NCBI GenBank assembly: GCA_963836185.1
Contig: CAWIIQ010000001.1
Coordinates: forward strand, 1,664,001-1,728,000
Direction of reading: 5' to 3'
DNA: 64,000 nt
Source of the DNA: Candidatus Krumholzibacteriia bacterium
Lineage (GTDB): Bacteria > Krumholzibacteriota > Krumholzibacteriia > Krumholzibacteriales > Krumholzibacteriaceae
Position numbers and translations under genes: made by a program. Below the pieces are notes generated by a model. It was not told where the DNA came from and did no database searches. It worked only from the letters and a program-made list of their open reading frames with translations. Shown here one piece after another: positions 11,400-50,610 of this stretch (positions within the stretch are counted from its first letter, which is position 1; each line of letters begins with the position of its first letter).

Positions 11400-11415
11400 T
11401 GGCTTGGTTCTTGCT
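11400..11415 (+). promoter_or_regulatory. sigma54 (-24/-12) promoter
   Basis: TGGCTTGGTTCTTGCT versus consensus TGGCACG-N4-TTGCW, in the short intergenic gap. Confidence 0.6.
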
Positions 11416-11465
11416 CATTTTCTCACCGGAAAAGCGTGTTTCAGGGTATCTTTCCGGAGGGAAAA

Positions 11466-13745
11466 GTGGAGGCGGCAAAGATAGCCATTCTAGGCGGCGG
11501 TGAGGATGAACTGAATATCCTCAGCGAGTATCACAGAGACCCGGGTTTCGATATCCTGGGGATCTATGACCGCGATCCGAGAGCTGTCGCCATGGAAGTC
11601 GCCGAGATCATCGGTGTTCCTGTTTTCACGGACAGGTCCTTTCTCAAGGCATTCGAAAAGGCGGATTACGTCGTAGTCTCCGGGAAAAGCGGGATCTATA
11701 ATTCGGAACTGGGCATGCTCTCCAATGCCGGAATAAGGATCCTCAATCCTTCTGAAGCCGCTTCGAGCATGGCCGACAGCGCCTCCGAGAACGATATCGA
11801 ACCCGGCGAGAAACCACCCTGGCCGAGACATCTCGAACAGGCGCTGCAGTATATCAACAGGATAACTGATCGAGACAGACTGCTGAAATGGCTTCTCGAG
11901 ATATCTGTAAGAGCCGTCGAAGCCTCTACGGGCTCTATCATGCTGCATTCCGAGAACACGAGCGAACTGTATATCGGCTATGCGATGGGGCTCAGCCAGG
12001 ACGTGGTCTCAAACACGAGACAGAAGGTAGGAACCGGGATCTCCGGCAAGGTGGCCGAGACTGGTGAGGCGCTGCTCGTTCATGATATCGTCGACGATCC
12101 TCTCTACAGGGAGGGACGGGAAAGAGAATCGATAAGCAGCTCGGTATCCGCTCCTCTCACTGTAGGCAAGACGCTGATAGGGGTCCTCAACGTATCTACA
12201 AGCGAGGGGGAGCGCCGGCTGGACGAAAATGACCGGGACACGATAGGCCTTCTGGCGTCGAAGATATCTCCGATCCTCGCGCAGCATCTGAGGATCGACA
12301 CTGAAAAGATACGTGAGACCGAATTCAAGATCAGGAACTACATCGAATCGCTTTTCCAGAGAGACATTGAATTTCATGACAAATTCCTCTTTCTCTGCCG
12401 TGCCCTTGCGGACATCCTTTCCGCGGATACGGTCACGATCTATACTGCCACCGATGAAGGCGACTGGCTCATACTGGGCGGCAGCGACCAGCAGATACAG
12501 GATGGGGGCAGAGCTCCCAGGATCCACTGTATCAAGGGAAGCCTGGCACGCTCCTATGTGAACAGCGAAGAAGTGATGATGACCGAGGCCAATCATGACT
12601 CCGGCCTCAAGATATCCGGGCGCAGGGACGCGCTGACATCGATATATATTCCGCTGGAGCATGAAGATCCCCTGGGCGTGGCACTGTTCGAATTCTCAAG
12701 CCTTGATTCACTTGAGAGCTTCATCAAGATCAAGGACGTCCTGCGATTCCAGCTGGGGTTCTTTGTCTATACCCAGCTCAGAGAGCTCCGGCAGGCCCGC
12801 AAGATGCACAGTCTCGAAGACCTCTCCGGTCTGACTCCGGCACTTATGGGCGCTCCGGTCCTCGCTAAAAAGCTGAAGATGCTTCCAGGGCTGATCTCTC
12901 CGATCATTGGAGCGAGCAAAGGCAGTTTCCACTTCATCGGACATAGGTTAGAGGAAGCGGCCTATCATGGCTTCCCCGAGGACGAAAAGGAATGGTCCAT
13001 CCTCAGGGCTACCGATGAACAGATGCTTCTGCGCGCCCTGGAACAGGGGAAACCTGAATGCATCAGCTTCCTTTCAAGGGATATAGGAGCGTACGACAAC
13101 CCTCCGCCATACAGGTCACTGGTCATCTATCCCTTTGCAGGTGCGGATTTCAGGGCCTACTACCTTGGATACGATCGCGTTCCGGGATCCCCGCTCGATC
13201 CCTCGATCTTCGGTACGCACGAACTCGAGCTTCTCGGCAGGATATCGGAGATAATCCTCCCTATACTTCATGAAAGCGGAGTAGAAAAGCGGGAAGGGAA
13301 AGCGGCATCATTCGATGACCTTCTTCGCTCCAACCAGAAGATCCTTCTGGAAAGGGTAAACGAGGAGATAGAACGCGCCGAGAGGTATCATCACGGATTT
13401 ATCGTAACCCTCTACAAGGTAAACGGTCTGAAGGAAGTGCTCACTACGGAGTACAATGCGACACTCGAGGTGATAAACGAGATTAGTATCGGGGTGCGTA
13501 AACAGGTTCGAAGAACCGACTATTTTTCGTGGATAGAACCGGATATTTTCGCTGTGATCTCCCTTGAAAGCCACCACCGGATCGAATTCCTCGAGCAACG
13601 CCTTCTTGATTTCATAGCCACCGTCCTGAAGAAAAGGAATCTGTTCGTCGAGAACAAAGTCTACCCATCGAGTTCCTTCGCCGTATACCCCGGCGGTTCG
13701 GAGACATCATCCGAACTTATCACCGAGGCGAAAAACCGCTTCTGA
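11466..13745 (+). CDS. Multi-GAF sensor with N-terminal Rossmann-like domain and degenerate GGDEF domain
   Basis: KIAILGGG N-terminus; GAF (GTGISGKVAETG, VSAPL..IGVLNV); EEIERAERY linker; RRTD..IEPDIF; GGAGG before GTG 11466. Confidence 0.75.
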   Translation: MEAAKIAILGGGEDELNILSEYHRDPGFDILGIYDRDPRAVAMEVAEIIGVPVFTDRSFLKAFEKADYVVVSGKSGIYNSELGMLSNAGIRILNPSEAASSMADSASENDIEPGEKPPWPRHLEQALQYINRITDRDRLLKWLLEISVRAVEASTGSIMLHSENTSELYIGYAMGLSQDVVSNTRQKVGTGISGKVAETGEALLVHDIVDDPLYREGRERESISSSVSAPLTVGKTLIGVLNVSTSEGERRLDENDRDTIGLLASKISPILAQHLRIDTEKIRETEFKIRNYIESLFQRDIEFHDKFLFLCRALADILSADTVTIYTATDEGDWLILGGSDQQIQDGGRAPRIHCIKGSLARSYVNSEEVMMTEANHDSGLKISGRRDALTSIYIPLEHEDPLGVALFEFSSLDSLESFIKIKDVLRFQLGFFVYTQLRELRQARKMHSLEDLSGLTPALMGAPVLAKKLKMLPGLISPIIGASKGSFHFIGHRLEEAAYHGFPEDEKEWSILRATDEQMLLRALEQGKPECISFLSRDIGAYDNPPPYRSLVIYPFAGADFRAYYLGYDRVPGSPLDPSIFGTHELELLGRISEIILPILHESGVEKREGKAASFDDLLRSNQKILLERVNEEIERAERYHHGFIVTLYKVNGLKEVLTTEYNATLEVINEISIGVRKQVRRTDYFSWIEPDIFAVISLESHHRIEFLEQRLLDFIATVLKKRNLFVENKVYPSSSFAVYPGGSETSSELITEAKNRF

Positions 13746-13880
13746 TACTCTCCTGCTGCCCCGTTCATTCTCCGTTGCCATCAGGTAAAATACTGTGTTA
13801 TCTTAAAGGTCCGGATGGTCCCCGATTGGGGCGCCCCGTCCGCATCACAGCCTTAACAGCAATAATAACTGGGTGTTACC

Positions 13881-16712: not shown

Positions 16713-18022
16713 ATGCCTGTAAAGATCTCAGAAATATGCGGCCGCGAAGGATTCTTCCGCAAGGGAGACCGGATAACCGCCGTTGACGGAAGAAAGGTCG
16801 ACGACCAGCTCGATCTTTACTTTAACCTGTCAGGGATGGAATCCGCTCTTTTCAGTATTGAGCGGGCGAACGGCAGGAAAGTGGAGAGGAGGATAAGGCT
16901 CGAGACCTTTGAAAGAGCGGCGCCTGTCTTCGAGGAGATGAGGTTCATCCGTTGCGCGTCACGATGCATATTCTGCTTTGTCGACCAGATGCCCCCGGGA
17001 ATGAGGGACACTCTTTATTTCAAGGATGACGATTACAGGCTCAGCTTTCTCTTCGGCAACTATATTACCCTGAACGACATCTCAAAGGCGCAGGTTAAAC
17101 GGATCATAGAGTACAGCCTGTCGCCTCTCTTCGTTTCCGTTCACGCTACTGACATACTGATCCGCGAAAAGATCTTCGGACGCCCGATGAAGAACGACAT
17201 CATGGAGATACTTTCACATCTGGCTGACCGAGGGATATCGATACACGCCCAGATAGTAGTGATCCCGGGAGTAAATGACGGCCGTGTTCTCGCGAGAACG
17301 ATGCGCGACCTGTTTTCACTCTACCCGGCATGCAGATCCCTTGCTGTGGTCCCTGTAGGCCTGACCGGTCACAGGACGGGCCTGACGGACCTCAGGAAGA
17401 TCACTCCATCCGAGGCCAGAGAGATGATAGACTTGTCAGAACTGATGAACGCTGGATTCAGGAAGAAGACGGGGGGAATGATTTCGTTTTCATGTCGGAT
17501 GAATTCTACCTTCTCGCCGGCCGCGTTTTCCCCGACGCGGAAAATTACGGCGCGTTCGAACAGCTCTCCAACGGAGTCGGAATGAGCCGGCTGCTGATCG
17601 AAAGTATCAAGGACCGTGTTGAACATCTGGGCAAGAGGAAGGTCAGGCCTTCCGGGAGGATGACACTTGTCACCGGACGCCTTGGAAGCAGACTGATGAA
17701 CAGGCACCTTCTCCCGATAGTGAGCAAAGCTCTGCCTGATCTCTCCATCGAAGTGATAACCGTGACCAATTCAACTTTCGGCAGATCAGTAACAGTGTCG
17801 GGGCTTCTCTCAGGGGCCGATATAGCCTCCGCCGTTAAGCATCGCGGCATACATGACGGAATACTCGTCCTTCCTCCGAATACGGTCAATCACCGGGGAC
17901 GGATGATCGACGATATCCGCCCGGCCGACCTGGGAAAGACGCTTGGAATGAAAGTGCTCGTACCGGAGGAGGATTTCCTCGAGTCCAAGGTACTCAGAGC
18001 GCTCAGGAAGGCGGCCGGATGA
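16713..18022 (+). CDS. DUF512 / PDZ radical SAM-like protein, one frameshift near 17471-17476
   Basis: CASRCIFCFVDQ, KDDDYRLSF, VVPVGLT in one frame; SDEFY, QLSNGVG, VTVSGLL in the other; break at a G6 run. Confidence 0.85.
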
Positions 18023-19346
18023 AGAACTCTCCGACAGTAGCGATCATCGGCAAGGTCAATTCCGGCAAATCGACACTGTTTAACCGGATCGTCGGCTCGA
18101 GGCGGGCAATAACACACGAGACACCCGGTGTGACGCGGGACACGATGGAAGGTACAGCCACCTGGAACGGCAAGGAATTCAGGGTGATCGATACGGGGGG
18201 ATTCGGATTCGATTCCGATGACCACCTTCAGAAGAGTATCACCGAAAGGATCGTACGCACCGTTCAGTTGGCCCGGGCCATAATCTTTCTTGTCGACGTG
18301 GATACCGGCCCTACTGATGAAGACGAAAAACTACTCCTGAGGTTCCGTGACCACAGGGACCGGATCGATCCTCGCCGTAAACAAGGTCGAGAATCCCCAG
18401 GACGAGATAGAGGCGAACGTTTTCTACCGGCTCGGGTTTAAAAAGCTCTTCATGGTCAGTGCGCTTCATGGCAGGGGAATAGGCGACCTCCTCGATGAGA
18501 TCACTGGAGATCTTCCGGACAGTGTGAGCGAACCTGTCACTTCCTGACGATCTTATGATCGCGATAACCGGCAGGCCCAATGTCGGGAAGAGTTCTCTTA
18601 TCAACGCACTCTCCGGGGAGGACAAACATATCGTTTCAGAGGTGCCGGGCACGACCCGTGACACGATCGATATAAGGATCAGGCATCACGGACGCGATAT
18701 TGTCCTGATCGATACGGCGGGGGTGAAGAGAAGGGCGAGGACTGAAAAGGGACTTGATTCTATAAGCAGCATGATGAGCATCAGAAGTGTCGACCGGGCC
18801 GATATAGTCCTGGTGATGCTCGACGCCTCGACAGGGGAGATCTCCAACCAGGACACCCGCATGGCCTCACTTGCGCACAAGGCTAAAAAGGGTGCTCTGA
18901 TCCTGATGAACAAATGGGACCTGGTCGATCGCCAGACCGATACCTTCAAGTTTTTTGAGAAGAAGATAAGGGAAGAGATGCAATTCCTCTCCTACGCCCC
19001 GGTACTCTCGATCTCTGCTGTCAACGGCACCCGTCTCTCGAAGATCATCCCGACATGCCTGAGGATCCAGGAGCAGCGGATCAGGCAGATCCCTACATCG
19101 GAGCTCAACAGGCTACTTGAGGAGGCCGTCAGGAGAAATCCCCCTAAATTCCATGATGGAGGCTCAGGGAAGATATATTACGCGACTCAGACAGGCGTCG
19201 AACCGCCAACCTTCACCCTGTTTGTAAATAAAGCTGCCTATTTCCCTCGTTCTTATGTACGTTATCTCAATAATCAGATCAGAAAAATGTTTACCTTCGA
19301 GGGTACCGCGGTTAGAATCTCCCTGAGATCCAAAGGAGAGTCTTGA
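18019..19346 (+). CDS. der: Ribosome biogenesis GTPase Der, two frameshifts (about 18367 and 18540)
   Basis: GKVNSGKS/DTGG, then ILAVNKVE/SALHGRG, then GRPNVGKSS/DTAG/NKWD and a KH-like tail, spread over three frames. Confidence 0.93.
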
Positions 19347-19960
19347 TGGATACCGCATGGAGAGTCGCGCTATTGATAGTTTCGAGCTATTTTCTCGGCG
19401 CGATACCGTTCAGCTATATCGCAGGCAGGATTTTCAGAGGTATAGACCTGAGAGATCATGGCAGCGGTAACCTTGGCGCTGCCAACACCTTTCGTGTCCT
19501 CGGCAAAGGAGCGGCAATACCTGTGCTGCTTGCCGATATCGGCAAAGGGTACCTCGCCGTCAAGCTTGTCTCCCTGTACGGCCTGGACGGGTATCAGTAT
19601 ATGCTGGTAGCCGCTCTGGTCGTAATCATCGGGCATAACTATTCGATATTTGTCCGGTTCGCGGGAGGGAAGGGGGTCGGCACCACGGCCGGCACATTCC
19701 TGGCGATGGCGCCGTGCGCCGTCCTATTGTGCCTGGGAATATGGGTCGCTCTCCTGATGATATCGAGGATCGTCTCGGTGGCCAGTATGATATCCGCCGC
19801 CTGCCTTCCGCTGGCTATCGCGGTTATGAACAGGGTCACATCGTGCTCTACGCACAGCTCTGTATTCTACCTTTCCATCGTGGCGGCGCTGTTCGTGATC
19901 TACAAGCACAGATCCAATATCCGCAGGCTGCGTGAAAGGACCGAGAAAAGGATATTCTGA
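19346..19960 (+). CDS. plsY: Glycerol-3-phosphate acyltransferase
   Basis: GSGNLGAAN, GHNYS, GGKGVGT, HRSNIRRL. Confidence 0.95.
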   Translation: MDTAWRVALLIVSSYFLGAIPFSYIAGRIFRGIDLRDHGSGNLGAANTFRVLGKGAAIPVLLADIGKGYLAVKLVSLYGLDGYQYMLVAALVVIIGHNYSIFVRFAGGKGVGTTAGTFLAMAPCAVLLCLGIWVALLMISRIVSVASMISAACLPLAIAVMNRVTSCSTHSSVFYLSIVAALFVIYKHRSNIRRLRERTEKRIF

Positions 19961-19965
19961 ATATT

Positions 19966-20993
19966 ATGGCTAAGAAGACTAAAGCAAAACGTATCGCGGT
20001 CCTTGGAGCGGGCAGCTGGGGCACCACACTCGCTCTCCTGCTTAACGATAACGGACATGAAGTAGTGCTCTGGGAATTCTTCACAGATCTCGCGAAAACG
20101 ATCGCGAAAAAACGAGTGAACAGCAAATACCTTCCCGGGGTGAGGATACCGGCCTCTGTCAAGGTGACTTCCGATCTCGACCTGGCGCTGTGCGGCTGCA
20201 CTCACATTCTTTTCGTGACCCCGAGCCATACGGTCAGAAACGTCGCCCGGATGGTCCAAGCCTCAGATTCATTCAGGAAATCGATGGTCATCATAAACGC
20301 CTCTAAGGGCCTCGAGGAAAAGACACTATGCAGGATGAGCGAGGTACTAGGCCAGGAACTTCCCCAGACACGGGCAAGATAGTAGGTCTGCTCGGCCCGA
20401 GTCATGCGGAGGAGGTAAGCCGAAAGATGCCGACTTCGGTGGTGGTAGCCGGCTCTAACCCGCAGATCCTTGAAAAAACACAGCAGCTTTTCATGAACGA
20501 GTACTTCAGGGTCTATACTAACACCGACCTGATCGGCGTGGAGCTCGGTGTCTCCCTGAAGAATACGATAGCCATCGCGGCTGGAATATGTGACGGGCTC
20601 GGATTCGGAGATAACACGAAAGCCGCTCTCCTGACAAGAGGGCTGGCAGAGATAAAGCGTCTCGTATCGAGGCTCGGGGGCAGGGAAGAGACCCTGAGCG
20701 GGCTCGCCGGGGTGGGTGACCTTATCGTGACATGCATGAGCAGGCACAGCAGAAACAGGTATGTCGGCGAGCAGATCGGACAGGGCAGAACTCTCCAGGA
20801 AGTCCTCGACAGCATGGTCATGGTCGCCGAAGGGGTGAAAACGACGAAGGCCGCTGTCGCTCTTTCCCGGAGGTCCGGCGTCGAACTGCCCATCGCCGAG
20901 CAGGTATACCGGGTCCTTTTTTACAGCAAGGATCCAAAGAAGGCTATAAGGGATCTTATGGTCCGGAAAGCGAAGAAGGAGATGTACCGCTGA
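19966..20993 (+). CDS. gpsA: NAD(P)H-dependent glycerol-3-phosphate dehydrogenase, frameshift near 20362-20365
   Basis: GAGSWGT and SKGLE in one frame; [28 protein letters not shown] in the other; break at a C4 run. Confidence 0.93.
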
Positions 20994-23618: not shown

Positions 23619-24120
23619 TTTGGCCCCCATTTTCGCTTTTGCCCTCAATCTCTCACCCAGGGTGATGACTTTCATCCTGTCGATGCTGCCTATCTCGGAG
23701 TTGAGGGGAGCGATACCTTATGCTATATGGGTAGGGAAGATAGGCTGGAAAGAGGCATATATCATCGCCGTCATCGGCAATTTCATTCCAGTGATCCCCC
23801 TGTTGTTCTTTATGGAGAAAGCTTCGGTATGGTTGAGGAAATATCCCCTGGGGGACAGGTTCTTCACCTGGTTCTTCAACAGGACGAGGAGGAAGGGCAA
23901 GCTGATAGAGCGCTTCCACGCGATAGGGCTCACCATGTTTGTGGCCATCCCCCTGCCGGTGACGGGAGCCTGGACCGGATGCGCCGCCGCTATAATCTTC
24001 AATATTCCGAGAAAGTTCGCCATACCGTGTATTTTCCTCGGTGTACTGATCGCAGGATGCGTCGTCACCCTGGCCAGCATGGGGGTTATATCGTTCTGGG
24101 GGATAGAGAGTCATGGCTAG
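23611..24120 (+). CDS. COG2426 / putative small multidrug export membrane protein
   Basis: PISELRGAIP and FVAIPLPVTGAWTG motifs. Confidence 0.85.
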   Translation: MADLAPIFAFALNLSPRVMTFILSMLPISELRGAIPYAIWVGKIGWKEAYIIAVIGNFIPVIPLLFFMEKASVWLRKYPLGDRFFTWFFNRTRRKGKLIERFHAIGLTMFVAIPLPVTGAWTGCAAAIIFNIPRKFAIPCIFLGVLIAGCVVTLASMGVISFWGIESHG

Positions 24121-24171
24121 CGGAATTCGTTTGTGTTGGAACGCAATAAATGATATTTTACCGTCTGGCGT

Positions 24172-24249
24172 CGGGGTGTAGCGCAGTCCGGTTAGCGCGC
24201 CTGCTTCGGGAGCAGGAGGTCGCTGGTTCAATTCCAGTCACCCCGACCA
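24172..24249 (+). tRNA. tRNA-Pro(CGG)
   Basis: CGGGGTG/CACCCCG acceptor stem, CCTGC-TTCGGGA-GCAGG anticodon arm, encoded CCA. Confidence 0.96.
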
Positions 24250-24258
24250 TTTTTTGTT

Positions 24259-26646: not shown

Positions 26647-26711
26647 ATTCCACCAGCAGCCGGACTTCCCGGCACCGGGAGACTGAGAAATTTGCCATGG
26701 AGGTGATCACG

Positions 26712-40046: not shown

Positions 40047-40862
40047 TCAGCAGGCGCCTTTCCCCGAAATGACGACATAGATCGTCTTGAAGAGGATCTT
40101 TATCTCCTGGACGATAGAGAGCCCGACGATATACTGCAGATCGTAATACAGCTTTCCCGTCATCTGCTCGACCGTCTCGGTATACCCGTCCTCGACCTGG
40201 GCAAGCCCCGTAATTCCGGGTTTTACCTTTAATCTCAGAGGAAATTCTGGCAGTTCCTGACGGACCTGGTTGATAAAGAAGGATCTTTCCGGCCTCGGAC
40301 CGACAATGCTCATATCTCCCCGGATCACATTGATGAACTGGGGAAGTTCATCGATCCGCGTACGCCGCAGCAGGTGGCCGATCCTCGTTATCCGCGGATC
40401 GCCCTTGCTTGAGAGAGTAGGTCCTGCTTTCTCCGCATCCATGCGCATGGTCCTGAGCTTGTAGATGTTGAACGGCTTGCCGGCATGGATCTTCTTCCGC
40501 CTGTCATTTTCCGCTCTCCTGTCGAGACCGTTATAACCTTGCGCTCTATCTCCCCTGCGGTCCGTTCCTCTCCTGTTCAGGCCTATCCTCTCCTGTTTGT
40601 AAAAGATCGAACCTGGCGATTCGAGCTTTATCAGGATTGTCGCGGCGAGGATGACCGGCGAAAGGAGCACCAGTGCGGCGCCGGCGAAAACGATATCGAA
40701 GATCCTCTTGATCCTGTCGAAGGTCGAGGGTATCACGACCTGTTCGTCACTGACGACATCACCTAGGTAGGCAATATCACTGACTAGAGGATCGATACTC
40801 GTCCTCGCCAGCGGGATCGCCGTGTCGAAGTTGCTGATCGCTGTTCTATTGAATACTACCAA
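40047..40862 (-). CDS. Priming sugar-phosphate transferase (WcaJ/EpsL-type catalytic domain) with Arg-rich insertion
   Basis: KRIFDI, KLRTM, DPRITRIG, DELPQ, GDMSIVGPRPE, KPGITGLAQV. Confidence 0.93.
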   Translation of the reverse strand: MVVFNRTAISNFDTAIPLARTSIDPLVSDIAYLGDVVSDEQVVIPSTFDRIKRIFDIVFAGAALVLLSPVILAATILIKLESPGSIFYKQERIGLNRRGTDRRGDRAQGYNGLDRRAENDRRKKIHAGKPFNIYKLRTMRMDAEKAGPTLSSKGDPRITRIGHLLRRTRIDELPQFINVIRGDMSIVGPRPERSFFINQVRQELPEFPLRLKVKPGITGLAQVEDGYTETVEQMTGKLYYDLQYIVGLSIVQEIKILFKTIYVVISGKGAC

Positions 40863-40925: not shown

Positions 40926-40941
40926 TGCAACTTCCGTACCC
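40926..40941 (-). promoter_or_regulatory. sigma54 (-24/-12) promoter
   Basis: Minus strand GGGTACGGAAGTTGCA. Confidence 0.65.
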
Positions 40942-41143
40942 CACCATCATAATTCCACACTCACATAGAAAACAGGTGAATACACACGCATAAGTCACTA
41001 CGTATACATCTGTTAGAAAACCGTTAGTTGTTGTGAGCAAATTGCCGGACAGACCCCACATCCCAAATCATAGGTAATAATACCCATATTTTTCAAGCGA
41101 GTTGTGGATTTTTCCGCAATTTTTGCCGCTTATCCTGGCCAGA

Positions 41144-42688
41144 TCATGGGGTTGCTGTCGTGACTTCGTTACTGCGTGAGTACTGCCCACCCATATCGTA
41201 GACCAGTACTCTATAGTAGTACGAATTCGCTCCGTTGTCAAGCCCCGTATCGTCGAACCATGTGATTTCCCTGTTAGTTAGGACGCTCACGAGCTGCGAC
41301 GTTTCTGTGACTCCGGGCGATGTATCCCTGTATATCCGGTACTCCGAGAAGTCTGAGTCCGGATTTATAGTCCATTCCAGAGTAAGCCTGTCCGAACCGA
41401 TGGATGAAGGATCGCTCAGCACGACCGGGACAGGCAGCGCATCGAATGTCGACGCTGCTATCTCGTTGCTCCCCGACGCCTCACCCAGGTCGTTCGTCAC
41501 GTATACCCTGTAGTAGTAGGTAACACCCTGGTCGAGGTCGGAATCTGGATAGGTGGTCTGGCTCTTGAAATCCAGGCCCTGGACAAAGAGGGCCGGGTCG
41601 TCAGTGACACCAGGCTGCGTATCCCTGAATATCGTGTAGGCAGCGAAGTCTGTTTCCTGTGATTCCTCCCACCGGATAGTTATCATGCTCGTCGTAGAAT
41701 CGATAGATCCTATAAGCAGAACAGGTTCAGGAGGATCGGTAAAAGAGATACGGTCGGACCATTCGAGGGGAACGGACTGGTTCCCCACACGATCCGTAAA
41801 ACTACCTACTACAATCAGATCAGTTCCCCTGAAGATAGAAGGGAACGTGTAATCAGCCTCGTAACTTCCGTCTCCGGCGACAGGATCCCCTCCCCTGCCG
41901 TCATCGAAGAGATCTATCGGTCCCGCATTGAGACCCTCTATCTCAACGGAGGCAATACCGCCTGATTCATTGCCCTCTACGTCCATCGCGAGGTGAATTG
42001 TCGATCCGACACTGTATGTGTGCGGTTCAGGCGTGATCGCGAGGTCCTCGATCGCTGAATATGTATCCAGTTCTATCGTCGCGCTTACTGGCGGAGACAG
42101 GGCTCCCGACTGATCCTGGAACGAAGCATAGACCGTCTTCGGCCCGTCACCCTCCGTGAGCATCCAAGTCCGCGCTTGAGAGTAAGCTTCCCAGACAGTG
42201 GATCCGAAATCAGGGACATCCGATATACGCATCACTGCTGTCGAAGCCGGAGCGGTCAGGGCCAGTTCGACTACCATCGAACCGGTATATTCCAGCCCTG
42301 CGTTTATAAGCATCGAGTAGACAGAGGGCATGGCAGGGGCAGGTTCAGACCGGGCGCTCTCAACGCCGGATGATCCTACGGAAGAGATCGAATAGAAGTA
42401 CTGGAGCCCGTTCGTTACGTTCTCATCCACAAAAAAGGTATCGACCGTCTCGATTATCCGCACCCAGGCTTCTCCCAGCGTACTGGACCTGTAGAGCCTG
42501 TAAGAGGCCGCTTCCTCGACAGACGGCCATGAGAGGGCGATCTGCCCGTCCCCGGTGATGGTCCTTATGTTGACGGGCGCCTGCAGGCCCTCATCCTCTA
42601 TTTCCAGCGGTACTTCCTCGATATCGTCGAGACAGGATGGCAGCAGAACTGCCGCAATGAGCAGTATGAATAACATCTTCTTGGTCAT
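41144..42688 (-). CDS. Fibronectin type III repeat lipoprotein
   Basis: Lipobox LPSC; three Fn3-like repeats (YRLYRS, YTIFRD, YRIYRD / YYYRV); DDGRGGDPVAGDGSY motif. Confidence 0.85.
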   Translation of the reverse strand: MTKKMLFILLIAAVLLPSCLDDIEEVPLEIEDEGLQAPVNIRTITGDGQIALSWPSVEEAASYRLYRSSTLGEAWVRIIETVDTFFVDENVTNGLQYFYSISSVGSSGVESARSEPAPAMPSVYSMLINAGLEYTGSMVVELALTAPASTAVMRISDVPDFGSTVWEAYSQARTWMLTEGDGPKTVYASFQDQSGALSPPVSATIELDTYSAIEDLAITPEPHTYSVGSTIHLAMDVEGNESGGIASVEIEGLNAGPIDLFDDGRGGDPVAGDGSYEADYTFPSIFRGTDLIVVGSFTDRVGNQSVPLEWSDRISFTDPPEPVLLIGSIDSTTSMITIRWEESQETDFAAYTIFRDTQPGVTDDPALFVQGLDFKSQTTYPDSDLDQGVTYYYRVYVTNDLGEASGSNEIAASTFDALPVPVVLSDPSSIGSDRLTLEWTINPDSDFSEYRIYRDTSPGVTETSQLVSVLTNREITWFDDTGLDNGANSYYYRVLVYDMGGQYSRSNEVTTATP

Positions 42689-42706
42689 CAGTCTTTCCTC
42701 CGCTTA

Positions 42707-43807
42707 TCAGAATCTGTATACGAAAGATGCATGGGTCGGACCCGCGTCAAAGGAGAGATCGGATGGCGGGGCATCTTCCTGCCCCGGTATAAAGGTATCG
42801 ATCACTCCCAGGGCCCATATTCCCGCCAGGACTCCAAAGGATACGTTCCTCCAGCCTCGCGTCTTGTCGACATCGGCCCAGTACTCAGAAGACCGGCTTT
42901 GATAATATTCCTTATCCTCTACTGTGTCGGCGTTGTCAAAATATTCCAGGTTTAACTCGTAGGCATCGACAGCTTGGTCGTAAGTGTTGAGGTAATCGAG
43001 CGCGACGAGAGCTGATACCGTCGATGCCAGGGAGAATAAAACGCCTCTGGAACTCTTACCCTGGTAGAACTGCCCCCTCCCGGGCCGCAGTAATGAGAGA
43101 ATGGCTGCCTTGGCTGTGCTCGCTCCTGATCCTGTTATCTCTACGACAGAGCCTCCGGCTGTGACCGTGGTCCTAGGTGGATTGCCGACTATCCAGGGAT
43201 CGATGAGCTGAAAGGCATACATATATCCCGTATATGCGAGACAGCGTTTTCTATGAGTATTCTGGACGTTGAGATCGCGAGACGCCTGATTGGCGTCGAT
43301 AACGATACTCTCCTTGTCCTCTATGTTATCGGCTGCATCCAGCTGTTCCATCAGGTTAGTGTACCTGTTCTCTATGTGCTGATATTCATGCTGTTCTCTC
43401 AGCGTCACCAGGCCCGCCATCACTATCGATGCGAGATCTGTCCAGCCTGCATGTTTTCTGCCGACGTGGATCGAGCCCCAGCCCGGCACGATATTTCGAG
43501 CGAAAGTACCGAGGCGGTTGCCCCTTACCGACGCCACACCGTTATCATCCAGCGACAGGTAACCCCTCCTTACTTCGTACCCACGCCCCCTCACCGTCAG
43601 ATGATATGTCAGGCCCGGTTCGAGTTCACAGATCGTCAGCGGGACCGTACCGCTCATCATGACACCTTTGCTCAGCTGCACGAGAAGGTCCCCGGAATCA
43701 CCCGAGAAGTGCAGGCAACTCTGTGCACCGGCCTGACCGGACAGCGCGACAAACCCTACAGTCACAATGATCAACAGTATCAATGATCTCTTCATCAGAA
43801 TCTCCAC
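42707..43807 (-). CDS. Exported protein with PEGA-like N-terminus and two PGxG(S/Q) hydrophobic repeats
   Basis: Signal peptide; GTVPLTICELEPG; PGWGSIHVG and PGRGQFYQG; C-terminal Phe. Confidence 0.6.
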   Translation of the reverse strand: MEILMKRSLILLIIVTVGFVALSGQAGAQSCLHFSGDSGDLLVQLSKGVMMSGTVPLTICELEPGLTYHLTVRGRGYEVRRGYLSLDDNGVASVRGNRLGTFARNIVPGWGSIHVGRKHAGWTDLASIVMAGLVTLREQHEYQHIENRYTNLMEQLDAADNIEDKESIVIDANQASRDLNVQNTHRKRCLAYTGYMYAFQLIDPWIVGNPPRTTVTAGGSVVEITGSGASTAKAAILSLLRPGRGQFYQGKSSRGVLFSLASTVSALVALDYLNTYDQAVDAYELNLEYFDNADTVEDKEYYQSRSSEYWADVDKTRGWRNVSFGVLAGIWALGVIDTFIPGQEDAPPSDLSFDAGPTHASFVYRF

Positions 43808-43813
43808 GCCCCT

Positions 43814-44530
43814 CTATTTCTCATCATCTTCAGTATATCCATAATACTTGTAGTCATAATAGTACGGCAGGACTTCCGAAAGGTTGTTTACTACAACTCC
43901 CAGAAGGTTTGCGTTGGCGTCGAGAAGAATGTTCTTCGCCCTCAACGAGACATTCCTGGGAGTCATCCCCGCGAGAAGCACCAGAACGACTCCATCGACG
44001 ACACTCGAAATCAGCATCGGATCGCTGACGGGGATTATCGGAGCGCTGTCCACTATCACTATATCGTAGTAGAATTTTATCTTCTCAAAGATCTCGGTCA
44101 TCACGTCGCCCTCGAAGAGGTGCGCCGGTGACTTGACCCTTCTTCCAGCCGGTATGACCTTGAGATTCTCGATCGGAGTGTCTTTCACGGCCTCCATCGG
44201 ATCGATCTCACCGGTCAGGCACTCATACAGCCCGGGCTCTTTCGGCACATCGAAGATCTGGTGAAGCCTCGGCCTCCTGAGGTCGGCGTCGACCACGAGA
44301 GATTTCTTCCCTCTGAATCTCGCCACGGTGATTGCCAGGTGGGAAGCGACTGTGCTCTTTCCCTCTCCCCTGTTGGCGCTCGTTACAAGAAAACTCCTCT
44401 TGGGGTTTCTCCCGTCGATATGCCTGATATTCGAATAGAGGCGTCTCATCTCCGTAGCAATGGGACTCTCCTGGTCGAAGATATCGTATATCGTCTGCCT
44501 CTCGTCCTTCTCCAAATTACTACCTTCCAA
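43814..44530 (-). CDS. CpsD/CapB-family bacterial tyrosine kinase
   Basis: GEGKST, VDADLRRP, IVDSAP, Tyr cluster YYYDYKYYGY. Confidence 0.94.
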   Translation of the reverse strand: MEGSNLEKDERQTIYDIFDQESPIATEMRRLYSNIRHIDGRNPKRSFLVTSANRGEGKSTVASHLAITVARFRGKKSLVVDADLRRPRLHQIFDVPKEPGLYECLTGEIDPMEAVKDTPIENLKVIPAGRRVKSPAHLFEGDVMTEIFEKIKFYYDIVIVDSAPIIPVSDPMLISSVVDGVVLVLLAGMTPRNVSLRAKNILLDANANLLGVVVNNLSEVLPYYYDYKYYGYTEDDEK

Positions 44531-46193
44531 GAAGATCCTCGCTCAGTTCTACCCCTATGCTGGATTCCTGCAGTGCCTTGGCGTATATAAACATGGCGCC
44601 TGAGATCATCGTGATGAAGAGCAACATGCCTATCGACCAGATCAGGATCATCCTTCCGCGTTTCCTTTTCTCCCACGCGAAGTGAGAGACCGTCTTCGGT
44701 ATCGTTCCAAGGACCGGGAGCTTCAGGATCTTCTGGACCTCATCGACTGTCCTGAACGAATCATCCATATATTCAGTGACTAGTATCGATCCGAAGCCGC
44801 AGATAAGCCCGAACATGGCTGCGATGAGGATGACCTTTATCTTGTCGGGTTTGACGGGCGAGATCGGCCTCTCCGCCTTCTCTATGATGCTGATCCTGAC
44901 ACCGAGATTGGTACTCTGTATCGCCTCGTTGATCTGTGCCGAAGTCTTGGATTCGAGGAAAGCATCATAGATCGCCTGGTTCGTCTCGACCTCATGCGTC
45001 AGCTTTCCCACCTCTCGCTCCAGCTGCGGCCTTCTGCTGATATTCTCCCTGTACTGCTCTATATAACCGTTCAGTTTTCTTTCGGTAGTGCGGAAAAAAT
45101 TCGCCTGTTTACGCTGGAAGAAATACTCTGTGATCAACGGTTTCACGTCATTGGAGAACTCGCCGTACTCGTCATGGACGATCGCCGCGATCCTGCTCCT
45201 CACTTCCTCCCACAACGCCTCATATGCGGTCAGATCGGTGACTCCTTCGTCGTTCCCGGCCAGTTCCTGGAGTATCCTCTCCTCTGTATCGGCCAGGATC
45301 TGACGTTCGAGGTTATTCAGGGTCTCATCGTTCGAGATGCGGTCAGTCGAGGGGATCATACCGAAAACGGTCGTCAATCTCTCTCTGACACGGTTCAGTC
45401 CCATTTCATTTCTACCGACCTGGGCACCGAGAGAATTGACTCTGGCTTCGGCCGCATGAACGTTTGTGCCGTTGATAGGATTTCTTCCGGCACTCGTCGT
45501 AGCGAGCTCTCTTCCGATCCTGTCGAGTTCTTTCTCCGAATCCTCGAGCTTTTCCTTGTAGATAGCGAGCTGTTCGTCACTGAACGCGCCCGCCTGTCGC
45601 AATCCCTGGAGCTTTGCCTGCTGTGTGACCTCGATATATTTGTCACTGATCTTTGACGCCAGGACATGGGCGGTTCCCGGGTCAGAATCCAGGACGCTGA
45701 TTGCGAAGAAACCGGGGAGAGTCGTCCTGACGCTGATCTTGTTCCGCAGGATCCTGACGAGACTTCTCAACGTGAGTTCTTCCCCGGAAAGCCCCTCGGG
45801 ATCAGAGTTTTCCTCGGAAGGTGTCCTCAGCTCATATGCCCTCTGAAGCCCGAGGTCCATTATGACTCCCTCAAGGAACTCCCGGCTCATCAATCTGGTC
45901 TCGATCATAGCCTGGAAGCGCCTGCTCCGGTCCTGCCGGCGGTCCTCCATGGGCGTCACGTACCTGCTCATTGTGCCGGCGAGAATATTCTGTTCTTCGG
46001 CTGAGACCAGGGTAGAGGATTCATAGATCGGCGTAAGTTCCCTTACTCCAAGGAATGCAATAGTGAGCGACAGTATGACAGGAACGAAGAGAAAGAACTT
46101 CTTCCTCCAGAATATCTTCCAGTAGGAATAAAGGTCTATCTTCTGCTCATCATCTTCAGGAACGAATTTACGGACATTCTCCAATTTGATCAC
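44520..46193 (-). CDS. Polysaccharide co-polymerase (Wzz/GumC-type)
   Basis: N- and C-terminal TM, coiled coil, AERPISPVKP, LKLPVLGTIP. Confidence 0.9.
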   Translation of the reverse strand: MIKLENVRKFVPEDDEQKIDLYSYWKIFWRKKFFLFVPVILSLTIAFLGVRELTPIYESSTLVSAEEQNILAGTMSRYVTPMEDRRQDRSRRFQAMIETRLMSREFLEGVIMDLGLQRAYELRTPSEENSDPEGLSGEELTLRSLVRILRNKISVRTTLPGFFAISVLDSDPGTAHVLASKISDKYIEVTQQAKLQGLRQAGAFSDEQLAIYKEKLEDSEKELDRIGRELATTSAGRNPINGTNVHAAEARVNSLGAQVGRNEMGLNRVRERLTTVFGMIPSTDRISNDETLNNLERQILADTEERILQELAGNDEGVTDLTAYEALWEEVRSRIAAIVHDEYGEFSNDVKPLITEYFFQRKQANFFRTTERKLNGYIEQYRENISRRPQLEREVGKLTHEVETNQAIYDAFLESKTSAQINEAIQSTNLGVRISIIEKAERPISPVKPDKIKVILIAAMFGLICGFGSILVTEYMDDSFRTVDEVQKILKLPVLGTIPKTVSHFAWEKRKRGRMILIWSIGMLLFITMISGAMFIYAKALQESSIGVELSEDLLGR

Positions 46194-47128
46194 CTGTTGA
46201 CTATAGCGTAGACTGCTCCATAAGCTGTAACCGCAGCGAGCCAGAAAGTCGGGCTCTTCAATACTGCTAACGCCGTGTTCTGTGCCGGAACGCTGACTGT
46301 ATCATCTGCAAGGATCAGCGGATTGTGCCTGATATCCCCTGTCTCCAGATAGCGTTTGAAGTCAAAAGTCATGGTCAGCTGGCCCCCGTCGGGCAGGGTC
46401 CTGATCACTTTGACCTTTTCCATCCTGGCGTTTTCGGCCCCTCCTCCAGCAGCAAGTATCGCGTCGACAAGGGTCTTATCGCCGGAAAGCATGTATGGCC
46501 CCGGCGTTCTTACAGCGCCGATCACTCGAATCGAACCCGTGGCGGCATGCATCGCCGTACTCTCGGATACGATCACGGCATCGCCCGGGTGGAGAACGGG
46601 AAGGTCGTCGAGATTTCCCGATTCTATCGCCGCCTGGAGATCGACAAGCATGGTTCGCTGCCCTTCTCCTTCAGCCCTGATGATCCTCACTGTCCCGAGT
46701 GCCGCGGTCGATGTCGCTCCTCCGGCCTCCCTGATAGCTTCCCATACGGTAGGATTCTTTTCGAAACCATACTTTCCGGGGGTCACGACCTGCCCATGGA
46801 CGTAGATTATCCTCCTCGATTCTTCACCTAGAAGATTGATCGAGATGGACTGGACGCTCGGATAGATATCCCTCAACGCTCTCAGCAGGACATCCTCCGC
46901 ATCATCGAGTGCCATGCCGCCGATCATGATCTCTCCGACGATCGGGATGGAAACACGACCGGCCTCGTCGATGATGAGTGTTCTGTCGAGTTCGGATCGC
47001 TGGGGGACTGACAGCTCTATCCTGTCACCGGGCCTTAGACTGACCTCCTGGGCCCGCAGGCTGAATGCCAGACAAAGCACGGCGAGTATGATCCCTGATT
47101 TCTTAAAGCCTTTCATCTTGCCTCTCAT
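46190..47128 (-). CDS. Polysaccharide export protein (Wza-like, SLBB domains)
   Basis: LRPGDRI, GRVSIPIVG, VHGQVVTPG, VIGAVRTPG. Confidence 0.9.
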   Translation of the reverse strand: MRGKMKGFKKSGIILAVLCLAFSLRAQEVSLRPGDRIELSVPQRSELDRTLIIDEAGRVSIPIVGEIMIGGMALDDAEDVLLRALRDIYPSVQSISINLLGEESRRIIYVHGQVVTPGKYGFEKNPTVWEAIREAGGATSTAALGTVRIIRAEGEGQRTMLVDLQAAIESGNLDDLPVLHPGDAVIVSESTAMHAATGSIRVIGAVRTPGPYMLSGDKTLVDAILAAGGGAENARMEKVKVIRTLPDGGQLTMTFDFKRYLETGDIRHNPLILADDTVSVPAQNTALAVLKSPTFWLAAVTAYGAVYAIVNR

Positions 47129-47183
47129 GTCGGCCTCTAAGGTATCCGCAGTCCTTCACGCAAGTAAAGAAAAAAGGGGAAGA

Positions 47184-48125
47184 TCAACGTGTTCCGGACT
47201 GTTTGTACCACTCGACCGTTCTCTTCAATCCCTCCTCGAAACCTGTCTCAACGGAGTAACCGAACAGTTTCTCCGCCATCGAAATATCCGCTTGTGAATG
47301 TTTTACATCACCCGGTCTCGGATCCTCATAGACCGGATCGATCGATACGCCTGTCAATTCACAGAGCATACCGTACAACTCGTTCAGCGTAAATCTTCCG
47401 CCGCAGGCGACATTTATGACCTGTCCTGCCGCTTCTCCCCATCTGGCCGCCATGATGTTCGCCTTGACGATATTTTCGACATATGTAAAATCCCTGCTCT
47501 GCTCCCCGTCTCCATAGATCGTGGGGCTCTTTCCCTCGAGCAGCTTTGTGACGAAGATCGGTATGACCGCCGCGTACTGCGAGGCCGGATCCTGCCTCGG
47601 GCCGAACACGTTAAAATAGCGTATGCTGACAGTCGGCATCCCGTATACCTTCGAATAGACAGAGCAGTAATGTTCTCCCACGAGTTTGCTTACCGCGTAA
47701 GGAGAAAGGGGGGCGGGCAACATGTCTTCCCTCTTGGGATGGACCTCACTGTCACCGTACGCCGATGAGGATGCCGCGTACACCAGGCCCTTGACTTTTG
47801 CCTGTCGCGACTCCTCGAGCACCGTCAGGGTACCGCCGACATTGACCTCGTTGACGAGAACAGGCTCTTCGATGCTCCGCGGAACCGACGCCAGCGCAGC
47901 CTGATGGAGGACGTAATCAACGCCGTCGAGCGCCGCTCTTACCTCGGATGCCTCCCTGATGTCGCCTTTTATAAATCTTATCCCCTGCCGGAAATGCTCT
48001 ATGTTCCCCTCGTGGCCCGTAGAAAGGTTGTCGAAGACAACTACTTCTTCCCCCATCTCCACGAGTTTCTCCGCGATGTTGGATCCGATGAACCCAGCCC
48101 CTCCGGTTACAAGATATCGAGCCAT
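47184..48125 (-). CDS. UDP-sugar 4-epimerase (WbpP/TviC-like SDR)
   Basis: TGGAGFIG, YAVSK, RYFNVFGPRQDP. Confidence 0.93.
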   Translation of the reverse strand: MARYLVTGGAGFIGSNIAEKLVEMGEEVVVFDNLSTGHEGNIEHFRQGIRFIKGDIREASEVRAALDGVDYVLHQAALASVPRSIEEPVLVNEVNVGGTLTVLEESRQAKVKGLVYAASSSAYGDSEVHPKREDMLPAPLSPYAVSKLVGEHYCSVYSKVYGMPTVSIRYFNVFGPRQDPASQYAAVIPIFVTKLLEGKSPTIYGDGEQSRDFTYVENIVKANIMAARWGEAAGQVINVACGGRFTLNELYGMLCELTGVSIDPVYEDPRPGDVKHSQADISMAEKLFGYSVETGFEEGLKRTVEWYKQSGTR

Positions 48126-48147
48126 GTATCCTCCGTTCCGGCGTATA

Positions 48148-49443
48148 TTACATTGTGACGATGCTGTCGGAGTCGAATTCCTTCAGCACGTTTCTGGCAT
48201 CGAAGATCATCGGACAGTTATCCACGAGCAGAGAGTAATCTACTTCGGTATGACCCGTCACGATGATGGCGCAGTCCATGCCTGCCACCGCGTCCGCGGA
48301 GTATTCCAGGTGCGTGGCCGACTCGCTCTCCTCTTCAAGAGCCTTGACGAATGGATCGTTCCAGTAAATTTCAGCGCCTTTCATATCGAGCAGGCGTATG
48401 ATGTCGTAGGCGGGAGATTCTCTCGTATCATCGATGTCCTTCTTGTACGAGACACCCATGATGAGGATCTTGGAACCGTTAAGGCATTTCTTCCTGTCGT
48501 TCAGCGCCTCAGATACTCTCACCACGACATACCCCGGCATGTCACCGTTGATCACTCCGGCGAGCTCGATGAACCTCGCATCGAATCCGCTCTGCTTTGC
48601 CTTCCAGGAGAGATAGAACGGATCGATAGGTATGCAGTGACCGCCCAGTCCCGGACCGGGATAGAACGGCATAAATCCGAACGGCTTTGTCGCCGCGGCA
48701 TCTATCACTTCCCAGACATTTATACCCATCCTGTTGCACATCATCGCGATCTCGTTCACCAGGCCGATGTTAACGCTTCTGAAAGTGTTCTCCAGCAGCT
48801 TGACCGTTTCCGCAACCCGTGTCGAGCTCACGGCAACCGGATTCATCCCCGCCGCGGAGTACAACATCGCCGCCAATTCGGTGCAGGCCGGCGTAACTCC
48901 GCCGACGACCTTGGGTATATTCTTTGTCGTGAATTTTTCGTTTCCGGGATCGACCCTCTCAGGAGAAAAAGCGAGGTAGAAATCTTTTCCCACCTTCAAC
49001 CCGGTCTCCTCGAGTATAGGCAGCATGACCTCTTCTGTCGTACCAGGATAAGTAGTGCTCTCGAGTATGATCAGCTGTCCCTCATGGAGATATTTTCTGA
49101 TCATTTTGAGCGCAGCCACTATGTAGGAGATATCAGGGTCCTTCGTCTTCCTCAGCGGCGTAGGAACTGCGATATTTATCGTATCGACTTCTGACAGCAC
49201 GGAAAAATCATCCGTGGCGCTGAGGATACCCGATCCTACCACCTCGGAAAGTTCATCCCCTGCGACATCGCCGATATAGCTCCTGCCGGCATTGACTTCC
49301 GTGATCTTCCTTCCGTCAATGTCGATCCCCACTGTTTTCAGGCCTGCCTTGGAAAACTCCACCGCGAGTGGAAGCCCTACATATCCCAGTCCGATAACGC
49401 ACTGCAGCCCTTTGTTTTCAGCTAGTTTTTCCCTTAGTCCCAA
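48148..49443 (-). CDS. UDP-N-acetylhexosamine 6-dehydrogenase (WbpA/WbpO-like)
   Basis: GLGYVGLP, ESTTYPGTT, SPERVDPGN, KLLENTFR, GGHCIPIDP. Confidence 0.93.
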   Translation of the reverse strand: MGLREKLAENKGLQCVIGLGYVGLPLAVEFSKAGLKTVGIDIDGRKITEVNAGRSYIGDVAGDELSEVVGSGILSATDDFSVLSEVDTINIAVPTPLRKTKDPDISYIVAALKMIRKYLHEGQLIILESTTYPGTTEEVMLPILEETGLKVGKDFYLAFSPERVDPGNEKFTTKNIPKVVGGVTPACTELAAMLYSAAGMNPVAVSSTRVAETVKLLENTFRSVNIGLVNEIAMMCNRMGINVWEVIDAAATKPFGFMPFYPGPGLGGHCIPIDPFYLSWKAKQSGFDARFIELAGVINGDMPGYVVVRVSEALNDRKKCLNGSKILIMGVSYKKDIDDTRESPAYDIIRLLDMKGAEIYWNDPFVKALEEESESATHLEYSADAVAGMDCAIIVTGHTEVDYSLLVDNCPMIFDARNVLKEFDSDSIVTM

Positions 49444-49502: not shown

Positions 49503-49507
49503 AGGTT

Positions 49508-50557
49508 TCAAGTGCGCCCGGCGAATTCGAGGCTGGAATAAGTCCTGATGCTGTTCTTGCCATCCGACTTCGCTTTATACAGGGCTGTGTCCGCCCTGTC
49601 TATGATCTTCTCGACACTCGAAGCATCTTCGGGATAAACGGAGATCCCGATACTGCAGGTGAGAAGTCCAGGCGTCTTTCCGTCAAACAGGTATTCCCTC
49701 ACCCTTTCGAGAACCCTCTCCCCGTACACGATCGCTCCCTCTCCGGATGTGCCCGGGAGCAGTATCCCGAACTCATCTCCCCCGTACTTCGATACAATAT
49801 CTATCTCCCTGCAGCTCTCGGCAAGGATATTGGCTATATTCGTCAAGGCCCTGCTGCCTGACAAGTGCCCGTTTTTATCATTATATTCCTTGAGGTTATC
49901 CACGTCGAGCATGAGAAAGGAGAAAGAGGAATTAAACCTCTTGGCCCTCTTGACCTCCAGCCGCAACGACCGGATGAGGAACCTGTAGTTAAATACACCT
50001 GTCAACCCGTCCGTGATCGATTCCATCTCAAGTTTGCGGTAAAGCAGGTAGTTCTCGAAAGCGATAGCCGCCTGGTTGGCCATCATCGTCAGGAGATGTA
50101 TGTCATCCTCTGTGAACTGCTGCTGATCCTGGTCCTGGATAGCCAGGATCACACCGAGAAGGGAATTCTTGGCCATAAGCGGAGCCGAGATCACCATGGA
50201 GGACCTGTCGTCGCCCTCCAGACATTCAGTAGCCAGGGTCGAAAGATCTATCGCGAAGACTCCATCGCCTGCCATAGGCACGCTCACTTCGCGGTTCAGC
50301 CAGTTCAGGATACCGTTCGATTCGGGAAGATCCTCGACGATGATCTTCCTGCCCCTGTCCTGTTTCTCTCCCGAGTACTTTACGATCCTGTGATCGTCCA
50401 CGTAGATCAGGTAGACCCTTCTTGCCGGAAGAAGATCAAGTGCGATGTTCAATATCTTGTTGAAAATGACCCTGTTGTCCTTGCCGAGGCTTATCAGGCT
50501 CGTGATCTCGGCAAAAGTACTGAAGAGTACATCTTTTTCATCGATCCTGCCGGACAT
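49508..50557 (-). CDS. GAF-GGDEF diguanylate cyclase
   Basis: TDGLTG, REID I-site, intact GGDEF, DTALYKAK. Confidence 0.94.
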   Translation of the reverse strand: MSGRIDEKDVLFSTFAEITSLISLGKDNRVIFNKILNIALDLLPARRVYLIYVDDHRIVKYSGEKQDRGRKIIVEDLPESNGILNWLNREVSVPMAGDGVFAIDLSTLATECLEGDDRSSMVISAPLMAKNSLLGVILAIQDQDQQQFTEDDIHLLTMMANQAAIAFENYLLYRKLEMESITDGLTGVFNYRFLIRSLRLEVKRAKRFNSSFSFLMLDVDNLKEYNDKNGHLSGSRALTNIANILAESCREIDIVSKYGGDEFGILLPGTSGEGAIVYGERVLERVREYLFDGKTPGLLTCSIGISVYPEDASSVEKIIDRADTALYKAKSDGKNSIRTYSSLEFAGRT

Positions 50558-50594
50558 AATACTCCCTTCACGTCATCCAGACAGCCTTTCAGAC

Positions 50595-50610
50595 AGCAAG
50601 AGATATGCCA
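50595..50610 (-). promoter_or_regulatory. sigma54 (-24/-12) promoter
   Basis: Minus strand TGGCATATCTCTTGCT. Confidence 0.7.

Follow-up and report, generated by a model that had tools for sequence, protein, structure and literature searches.

The 64,000-nucleotide (nt) stretch of Candidatus Krumholzibacteriia DNA considered here (contig CAWIIQ010000001.1, positions 1,664,001 to 1,728,000 of the forward strand; the window) encodes at 26712-26768 on the forward strand an unannotated micropeptide of 18 amino acids (aa) that ends in IIDLFWWLR and, judging from its sequence and gene order, is likely to be an undescribed signal of the membrane phosphatase encoded beside it (27180-29642, reverse strand). 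The full reading proposed, to which a probability of roughly 0.4 is given, is an undescribed system of the Krumholzibacteriota in which a sigma54-induced peptide would serve as the periplasmic DLFWWLR ligand of a phosphatase with PDZ and seven-transmembrane (7TM) domains, and in which phage-borne mimics of the peptide would hijack the associated partner switch. A preliminary description of the window had correctly picked out the 18-aa open reading frame (ORF) and had grouped it with cyclic di-GMP (c-di-GMP) signalling and exopolysaccharide (EPS) genes under sigma54; the conserved partner of the peptide has instead turned out to be the PP2C-type phosphatase gene and not the EPS cluster. The source genome (3.5 Mb, 92.5% complete) was compared with 43 genomes of its family and 208 of its phylum, and conservation upstream of orthologues was counted with the source genome itself excluded. 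As related genomes are not independent, the counts given below express depth of conservation and no statistical test is attached to them.

The micropeptide is very probably translated. Its gene is preceded by the Shine-Dalgarno sequence GGAGGTG (26699-26705, forward strand), which recurs as GG(A/G)GGTG 4-7 nt ahead of the start in 32 loci, and its transcript would end in a terminator-like hairpin (26793-26832, forward strand) that is found in most loci of the family; the peptides of relatives are 14-24 aa long. The core pattern D-L/I-F/L-W-W-L-R/K occurs in 105 of the 208 phylum genomes against 1/208 for a reversed-pattern control, and 104 of the 105 positive genomes hold a single copy. A non-circular test was provided by the pattern-negative genomes, where 39 of 40 loci chosen by position alone hold the peptide and the 40th ends at a contig edge. 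The 34 distinct cores from position-picked loci have entropies of 0.80, 0.17 and 1.07 at the three codon positions, the minimum at the second being coding-like, and synonymous codons of the peptide vary freely while its residues are fixed. With a looser pattern the peptide appears in 11 of 12 genomes of family f5 and in none of the seven of family f4, and of the 18 loci recovered in this way 15 hold a true peptide that lies next to the phosphatase and has a sigma54 motif. The peptide is thus found in eight of nine families; the ninth, f4, lacks both the peptide and a full phosphatase match, its phosphatase matches being weak and present in 2/7 genomes. Among 99 distinct peptides the D and the first W are invariant, which is partly an effect of the filter, and the N-terminal part varies freely. 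Pfam, PHROGs and NCBIfam, searched with 26 members, hold no family for the peptide (best E 0.017-0.12, one member per family; the queries are short and of low power), and annotated phage records gave two weak, non-equivalent matches with E of 4-6.

The phosphatase gene is the constant companion of the peptide gene. Among the 106 pattern matches, 89 have a listed phosphatase position, and in 86 of these the distance between the peptide and the 3' end of the phosphatase gene is 137-481 nt (81 pairs on the same strand, five convergent), the other three being on different contigs. The adjacency is kept down to about 29% protein identity. The usual order is phosphatase, promoter, peptide and hairpin; in the source genus the block is inverted yet adjacent and is preceded by a different upstream repeat. 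Downstream neighbours of the peptide gene vary across families, and within 2.5 kb of the peptide in 20 loci no common neighbour was found except the phosphatase, although a processing or export gene could lie elsewhere. The gene is preceded by a -24/-12 motif (26631-26645, forward strand) with an ATGC variant at -12, which is kept in 113 of 127 distinct peptide loci as against 13-16 for other spacers; seven of the 14 loci that lack it are viral contigs or two phosphatase-free loci.

The phosphatase itself comprises, by profile search and model, a transmembrane (TM) segment, a PDZ-like domain, a multi-TM bundle, a GAF domain and a SpoIIE/PP2C domain, the latter matching PF07228 with 165.6 bits (cut-off 25). 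Nine hydrophobic segments lie in its N-terminal half. The model of this sensor half (pLDDT 79, pTM 0.74) contains after the first helix a predicted fold of the HtrA/DegS PDZ type (Z 11.0, root-mean-square deviation (rmsd) 1.9, 81 residues aligned), and HisKA_7TM is annotated on 12% of one Atlas cluster. A Foldseek search returned no match at E <= 0.001. Relatives of this class of PDZ-multi-TM sensors are present in Acidobacteriota, Chloroflexota and other phyla, and 12 STAS matches are found in the source genome. In a tree of 83 phosphatases the peptide tail types cluster with receptor clades (11 changes versus 37 in shuffles), which is not taken as co-evolution since kin share labels.

ORFs that end in the motif are also carried by viruses. 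Four pattern scans of IMG/VR gave 11, 13, 3 and 22 matches, from which, after removal of repeats and of 21 non-genes, 19 distinct contigs were retained, two pairs of which are near-identical or close relatives; with a scrambled pattern there were no matches. These copies sit among small genes and most are 14-24 aa like the host form. In the 18 viral contigs tested, no match to any source-genome protein, the phosphatase included, was detected within 1.5 kb. In the viral ORFs L427 (37 aa) and L421 (68 aa) the motif follows a leader that resembles a signal peptide, and in L418 a basic loop separates two hydrophobic segments, the second of which precedes the motif. Action from the periplasmic side is favoured because each of these three designs would place the motif outside the cytoplasm, and it is given about an even chance. 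The attachment of different leaders to the same ending hints at a host switch that is worth attacking. Occurrence in other phyla was probed by DNA patterns in an all-species scan that required an R-stop ending and from which RK, RR and RD forms escape. It yielded 36 matches, four of them due to chance and two (L159 and L166) true peptides without a sigma54 motif or a nearby phosphatase homologue. These two (L159:2501-2554, beside an integrase-like ORF, and L166:2501-2562) keep the Shine-Dalgarno sequence, their records are labelled Planctomycetota and Patescibacteria group, and they are possibly mobile elements or mis-binned contigs.

The promoter of the peptide gene is part of a sigma54 set that extends over the whole genome, a pattern that is already known. 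The rpoN gene, on which the sigma54 proposal of the preliminary description hung, is encoded in the source genome with all three domains by profile search, and of 23 matches to PF00158, 20 are nearly full-length, which corresponds to about 20 sigma54 activators. The proposal had rested on GG-N10-GC spacing. In a genome-wide scan against shuffles the full motif TGGCA-N6-TTGC proved enriched at its exact spacer (20 occurrences versus 1.1 in shuffles of 1961 upstream regions; six other spacers give 0-4), but the bare GG-N10-GC string was not; with 567 matches inside the window, and 1555 in the 1961 upstream regions against a shuffle mean of 1595, it was dropped as promoter evidence. A weight matrix trained outside the window recovers about 46 promoters at a score of at least 14 (false discovery rate 0.04), among them those of genes that, from their N-terminal sequences, are presumably PilM-, PilB- and MglA-like. 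A sigma54 site precedes two of the three GGDEF genes of the genome. The same matrix scores the proposed site of a TPR gene at 16.7, that of the priming transferase at 6.4 and that of the peptide at 3.7, and as the non-conserved TPR site thereby outscored two conserved ones, ranking by a single-genome matrix was abandoned in favour of conservation.

All six GG-N10-GC strings put forward in the preliminary description are present, intergenic and correctly oriented, and four of them are conserved and very probably real sigma54 promoters, whereas two are not. Besides the peptide promoter, the conserved sites are that of the diguanylate cyclase (DGC; 50596-50610, reverse strand), found in 29/29 family relatives and in 20/20 loci of seven other families; that of the transferase-kinase-activator genes (40926-40940, reverse strand), found in 28/28 usable relatives with one truncated; and that in the gap between mutS and the GAF protein gene (11400-11414, forward strand), which follows the strict pattern in 23 of 26 usable relatives and has a TGGCG variant in the other three. 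The site ahead of the TPR gene (29724-29738, forward strand) occurs in 3/29 relatives and 0/5 same-genus loci, and the weaker one ahead of the PP2C phosphatase gene (29680-29694, reverse strand), which overlaps a conserved TTGACA element, in 4/29 relatives against 0-3 for other spacers. Both are background, since other spacers score 0-4 there too, and they were rejected as chance matches overlapping conserved sigma70-type elements: a sigma70-like element lies upstream of the TPR gene in 28/30 loci and TTGACR upstream of the PP2C gene in 29/30. Between 29700 and 29790 such conserved elements stand back to back, one for the TPR gene and one for the phosphatase, and in both the -10 region is non-canonical; an RpoS-like sigma factor is encoded in the window at 24825-25649.

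The genes behind the other three promoters would form an ordinary link between sigma54, EPS and c-di-GMP that fits known biology. The DGC (49508-50557, reverse strand), a GAF-GGDEF protein with an intact active site and RxxD (GGDEF and RxxD in 30/30 loci), leads a run of seven EPS and export genes (41144-49443, reverse strand) separated by -4 to 64 nt, which encode a UDP-sugar dehydrogenase, an epimerase, Wza-like and Wzc-like proteins, a kinase, a DUF5683 protein and an fn3 protein. The protein at 11466-13745 (forward strand) matches Pfam GAF and, weakly, GGDEF; its GGDEF domain is catalytically dead with RxxD retained, a combination kept in 29/30 loci, and its sequence makes it a candidate c-di-GMP receptor. 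The degenerate GGDEF domain and the DGC had both been recognised in the preliminary description, as had the priming transferase (40047-40862, reverse strand), a phosphoglycosyl transferase that matches PF02397. The transferase contains an Arg-rich insert with two to three [DE]RR elements in 29/29 parsed loci and [YF]xGx[DEN]RR once in 8/29. Identity with the ARR module of Cle was rejected, the full tandem [Y/F]XGP[D/E][R/K]R being incomplete; the insert may point to direct control of EPS priming by c-di-GMP. With the DGC in the EPS run, RxxD in the GAF protein and the Arg-rich insert in the transferase, a functional link through a shared sigma factor and messenger is plausible, and it is now mapped here together with one predicted activator site.

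That site is predicted to belong to the NtrC-like protein and kinase that had been noticed next to the EPS genes and that proved to be a REC-AAA+-HTH enhancer-binding protein with a GAFTDA variant (36484-37908, reverse strand) and a PAS histidine kinase paired with it (37883-39964, reverse strand), both by profile search. The transferase gene is preceded by two 16-bp palindromes in tandem, spaced 32 bp apart, with the consensus TGGGKAAWWTTMCCCA (41071-41118), which are a predicted binding site of this activator. When member promoters were searched from -260 to -40, the best palindrome box was found in 29/29 transferase loci and both boxes, 31-32 bp apart, in 28/29; the count is positive partly by construction because the transferase loci themselves supplied the matrix; the fixed spacing and position are free of this effect. 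With the same matrix the box occurs in 0/30 DGC, 0/24 GAF and 0/31 peptide upstream regions, and genome-wide the tandem palindrome has one strong copy, in the transferase operon, and one weak copy without a sigma54 motif. In relatives the activator gene keeps a constant place two genes downstream of the transferase. The activator at 36484 is likely to regulate its own operon as a local autoregulated unit and, with its tandem palindrome at that operon only, is unlikely to drive the whole set; the four conserved promoters would thus likely answer to different activators. No enhancer shared across all promoters was detected. About 170 nt ahead of the peptide promoter, a direct TTGC repeat (26449-26467, forward strand) is a weak candidate for its activator site; the repeat is seen in same-genus loci and at 0/58 other sigma54 sites, and a similar repeat falls in other genera on fixed synonymous sites in the 3' end of the PP2C gene. 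A candidate IHF-like site, by comparison with the IHF consensus, lies at 50717-50729 (reverse strand) within a small ORF upstream of the DGC promoter, and codon conservation is raised there.

It is tentatively proposed that the adjacent kinase-activator pair would bind the palindrome and drive the transferase, kinase and activator genes as an autoregulated local unit, while expression of the DGC-EPS run, of the GAF protein and of the peptide would depend on other activators. The peptide would then reside at the outer face of the inner membrane, where its D-L-F-W-W-L-R core may bind the PDZ/TM sensor half of the phosphatase and tune the dephosphorylation of a STAS-type switch. That the peptide acts on the phosphatase is moderately probable; that it does so on the sensor half and is mimicked there by phages is an evenly balanced proposition. 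Several observations weigh against this reading. The host peptides have no signal sequence and many combine an acidic N-terminus with a basic C-terminus, for which the positive-inside rule would place the motif in the cytoplasm. Basic C-termini are also atypical of ligands of HtrA-type PDZ domains, and in f5 the last residue of the peptide is D or G. Only hydropathy and an AxA site served to judge the leaders of L427 and L421, and 20 of the 22 matches in one IMG/VR scan turned out not to be peptide genes. For the TM bundle, the match to a G-protein-coupled receptor (GPCR; Z 11.5, rmsd 4.8, 202 aligned) does not reach the strength at which likeness between helical bundles becomes meaningful. 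Twelve distant phosphatase homologues (24-28% identity; 80 metagenome loci) have no peptide within 470-600 nt, which means that receptors of this type also occur in its absence. Near the 3' end of the phosphatase gene, synonymous codon choice is fixed from -161 to -143, which suggests that the peptide enhancer is perhaps inside that gene; this would itself be enough to hold the two genes together. Distant, downstream or intragenic enhancers stay compatible with the missing palindrome at three promoters (PMC4641369).

Such an enhancer would also sustain the foremost alternative, a rather unlikely one, namely that the peptide is a small inner-membrane protein with another target, such as a protease, the translocon, a transporter or, as for type I toxins, the membrane itself, that it is tied to the phosphatase by an enhancer in that gene and that phages hit the same target. 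A hydrophobic chain of 14-24 aa with a basic tail, and viral copies with no phosphatase homologue within 1.5 kb, would both fit, and small membrane proteins often target transporters or depolarise membranes (PMC12719787). Against this stands the source genus, where the block is inverted and the upstream repeat differs and adjacency to the phosphatase is nonetheless kept, as well as f4, from which peptide and full phosphatase are missing together. The toxin variant sits poorly with one copy in 104 of 105 genomes, type I toxins being habitually multi-copy. Nor does an antitoxin pairing emerge with a neighbouring candidate RNA (26994-27124, forward strand), the only RNA tested, whose longest complement to the peptide transcript is 8 nt and which is limited to one family.

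A single surface or biofilm programme run by the neighbouring NtrC-like activator through all the sites, as the preliminary description had envisaged, is improbable. It would draw on the four conserved promoters, the DGC in its tight EPS run, the RxxD of the GAF protein and the Arg-rich insert of the transferase, and circuits that join sigma54, EPS and c-di-GMP do exist, as in Burkholderia (PMC5552954). The palindrome is however missing from the promoters of the DGC, the GAF protein and the peptide and is nearly unique genome-wide, about 20 activators compete, two of the six sites are due to chance, and peptide and phosphatase occur together where close DGC matches are rare (4/91 in f7 and 0/12 in f5 at E 1e-70). 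Still less probable is a tryptophan-sensing or ribosome-stalling leader, or an active RNA whose peptide is incidental. The tandem Trp codons near the stop and the hairpin after them recall TrpL leaders, and the transcript folds better than shuffles (z = -3.97); yet no regulated gene follows the terminator, neighbours there differ by family, it is residues and not synonymous codons that are fixed, and viral ORFs fuse the motif to unrelated leaders. A Trp attenuator was rejected, there being no trp operon or regulated gene downstream of the hairpin, and trpA was not found in the 92.5% complete genome. Action on the phosphatase is retained as the preferred reading.

Set beside known systems, the promoter set is another example of a familiar arrangement and the peptide matches no known family. 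In PMC3162934, PMC4641369 and PMC12316311, sigma54 controls EPS, pilus, lipoprotein and signalling genes of the bacterial exterior, and as in the window many activators have sites of their own and some surface promoters lack a findable enhancer; PMC4641369 counts 23 operons with a sigma54 promoter for which no site was found, many for surface functions. The string 'krumholz' does not occur in the main text of PMC12316311, whose supplements may cover the lineage. The transferase-operon palindrome and its operon were not found described in the literature; no comparison was made with the motif sets of PMC12316311 or RegPrecise. The PrsK/PrsR pair of PEP-CTERM systems is similar in that a tandem kinase and sigma54 activator stand beside glycosyltransferase and EPS genes with an upstream activator motif (PMC1569441). 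PrsK/PrsR identity (TIGR02916/TIGR02915) was rejected for the window pair, whose activator scores 389, below the cut-off of 502.6, unlike a true PrsK/PrsR pair elsewhere in the genome, of which both members lie above their cut-offs. That contig region (positions 237390-245950) also holds an exosortase gene with a frameshift and a gene that follows a sigma54 site and encodes a protein with a hydrophobic-basic tail; upstream there is one palindrome of the transferase type, present as a single copy. In Burkholderia cenocepacia, BerB and RpoN likewise form a circuit of sigma54 and an enhancer-binding protein with c-di-GMP and EPS (PMC5552954), but in contrast to BerB the window activator is of the receiver type with a kinase, and it is at the GAF protein and the transferase insert, rather than at the activator, that c-di-GMP is predicted to enter. 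The insert resembles the Arg-rich region of Cle described in PMC5677366, with tandem [DE]RR throughout and [YF]xGx[DE]RR in 8/29, and differs from it in that its elements are inserted in a phosphoglycosyl transferase.

For the peptide one likeness is MgrB-PhoQ, where a small membrane protein inhibits a membrane sensor (PMC12719787), much as the present tiny hydrophobic protein is predicted to tune a membrane signalling enzyme. It differs in the PP2C partner with its PDZ and multi-TM sensor, the length of 14-24 aa, the sigma54 promoter, the adjacent genes and the phage copies, and there is no sequence match. In the AgrD/AgrC and ComC/ComD systems a short peptide gene lies beside a multi-TM receptor gene and the peptide has a conserved C-terminal core and a variable N-terminus. 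The window peptide gene is similarly linked to a gene of multi-TM receptor type, but the host is diderm, the output is a phosphatase instead of a kinase, no processing or export gene is adjacent and the core is near-invariant across the phylum where those of Agr and Com are strain-specific. No paper on the peptide motif or on the phosphatase domain combination was found in a literature coverage that leaves out most subscription journals, nor was one found that joins Krumholzibacteria with sigma54 or small proteins. If correct, the proposed pairing would give a candidate ligand for a PDZ-multi-TM sensor class for which no described input was found. At one locus (L366:3842-3913) a distant phosphatase has downstream of it a sigma54 motif and a variant of the peptide that ends in DPFWWLW, which may extend the module beyond the phylum, and at L383-L398 peptide-free distant homologues precede instead a conserved membrane-anchored ORF, possibly an alternative partner.

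Next to the peptide gene lies a candidate structured non-coding RNA of about 130 nt (26994-27124, as above), present in 29 of 42 family genomes and preceded by a promoter-like TTGACA-17-TATAAT element of its own (26954-26982, forward strand) that is conserved in family loci. Double changes are seen in 6 of its 23 pairs, a number that 0/500 shuffles reach. The whole unit (26954-27160, forward strand), with its near-consensus sigma70 promoter, terminator and invariant core, travels with the peptide block in one family only. It has no meaningful match in Rfam, and identity with 6S or SRP RNA was rejected on that ground and because both RNAs are found elsewhere in the genome; no obvious mRNA target was seen, the longest match being 12 nt.

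Elsewhere in the window, genes for a DUF512 radical SAM protein, engA, gpsA, an M23 peptidase and leuS are split over frames, likely by sequencing indels (16713-20993, 23620-24828 and 31730-34241). The sequence (S/T)WGxIK stands a few residues from the C-terminus of 24 proteins, one of them encoded at 30989-31570 (forward strand), and is possibly a lineage-specific sorting signal; at the score applied, none of the 24 genes is immediately preceded by a sigma54 site. The 6S RNA lies upstream of rny at 63883-64000 (reverse strand) and runs past the end of the window.

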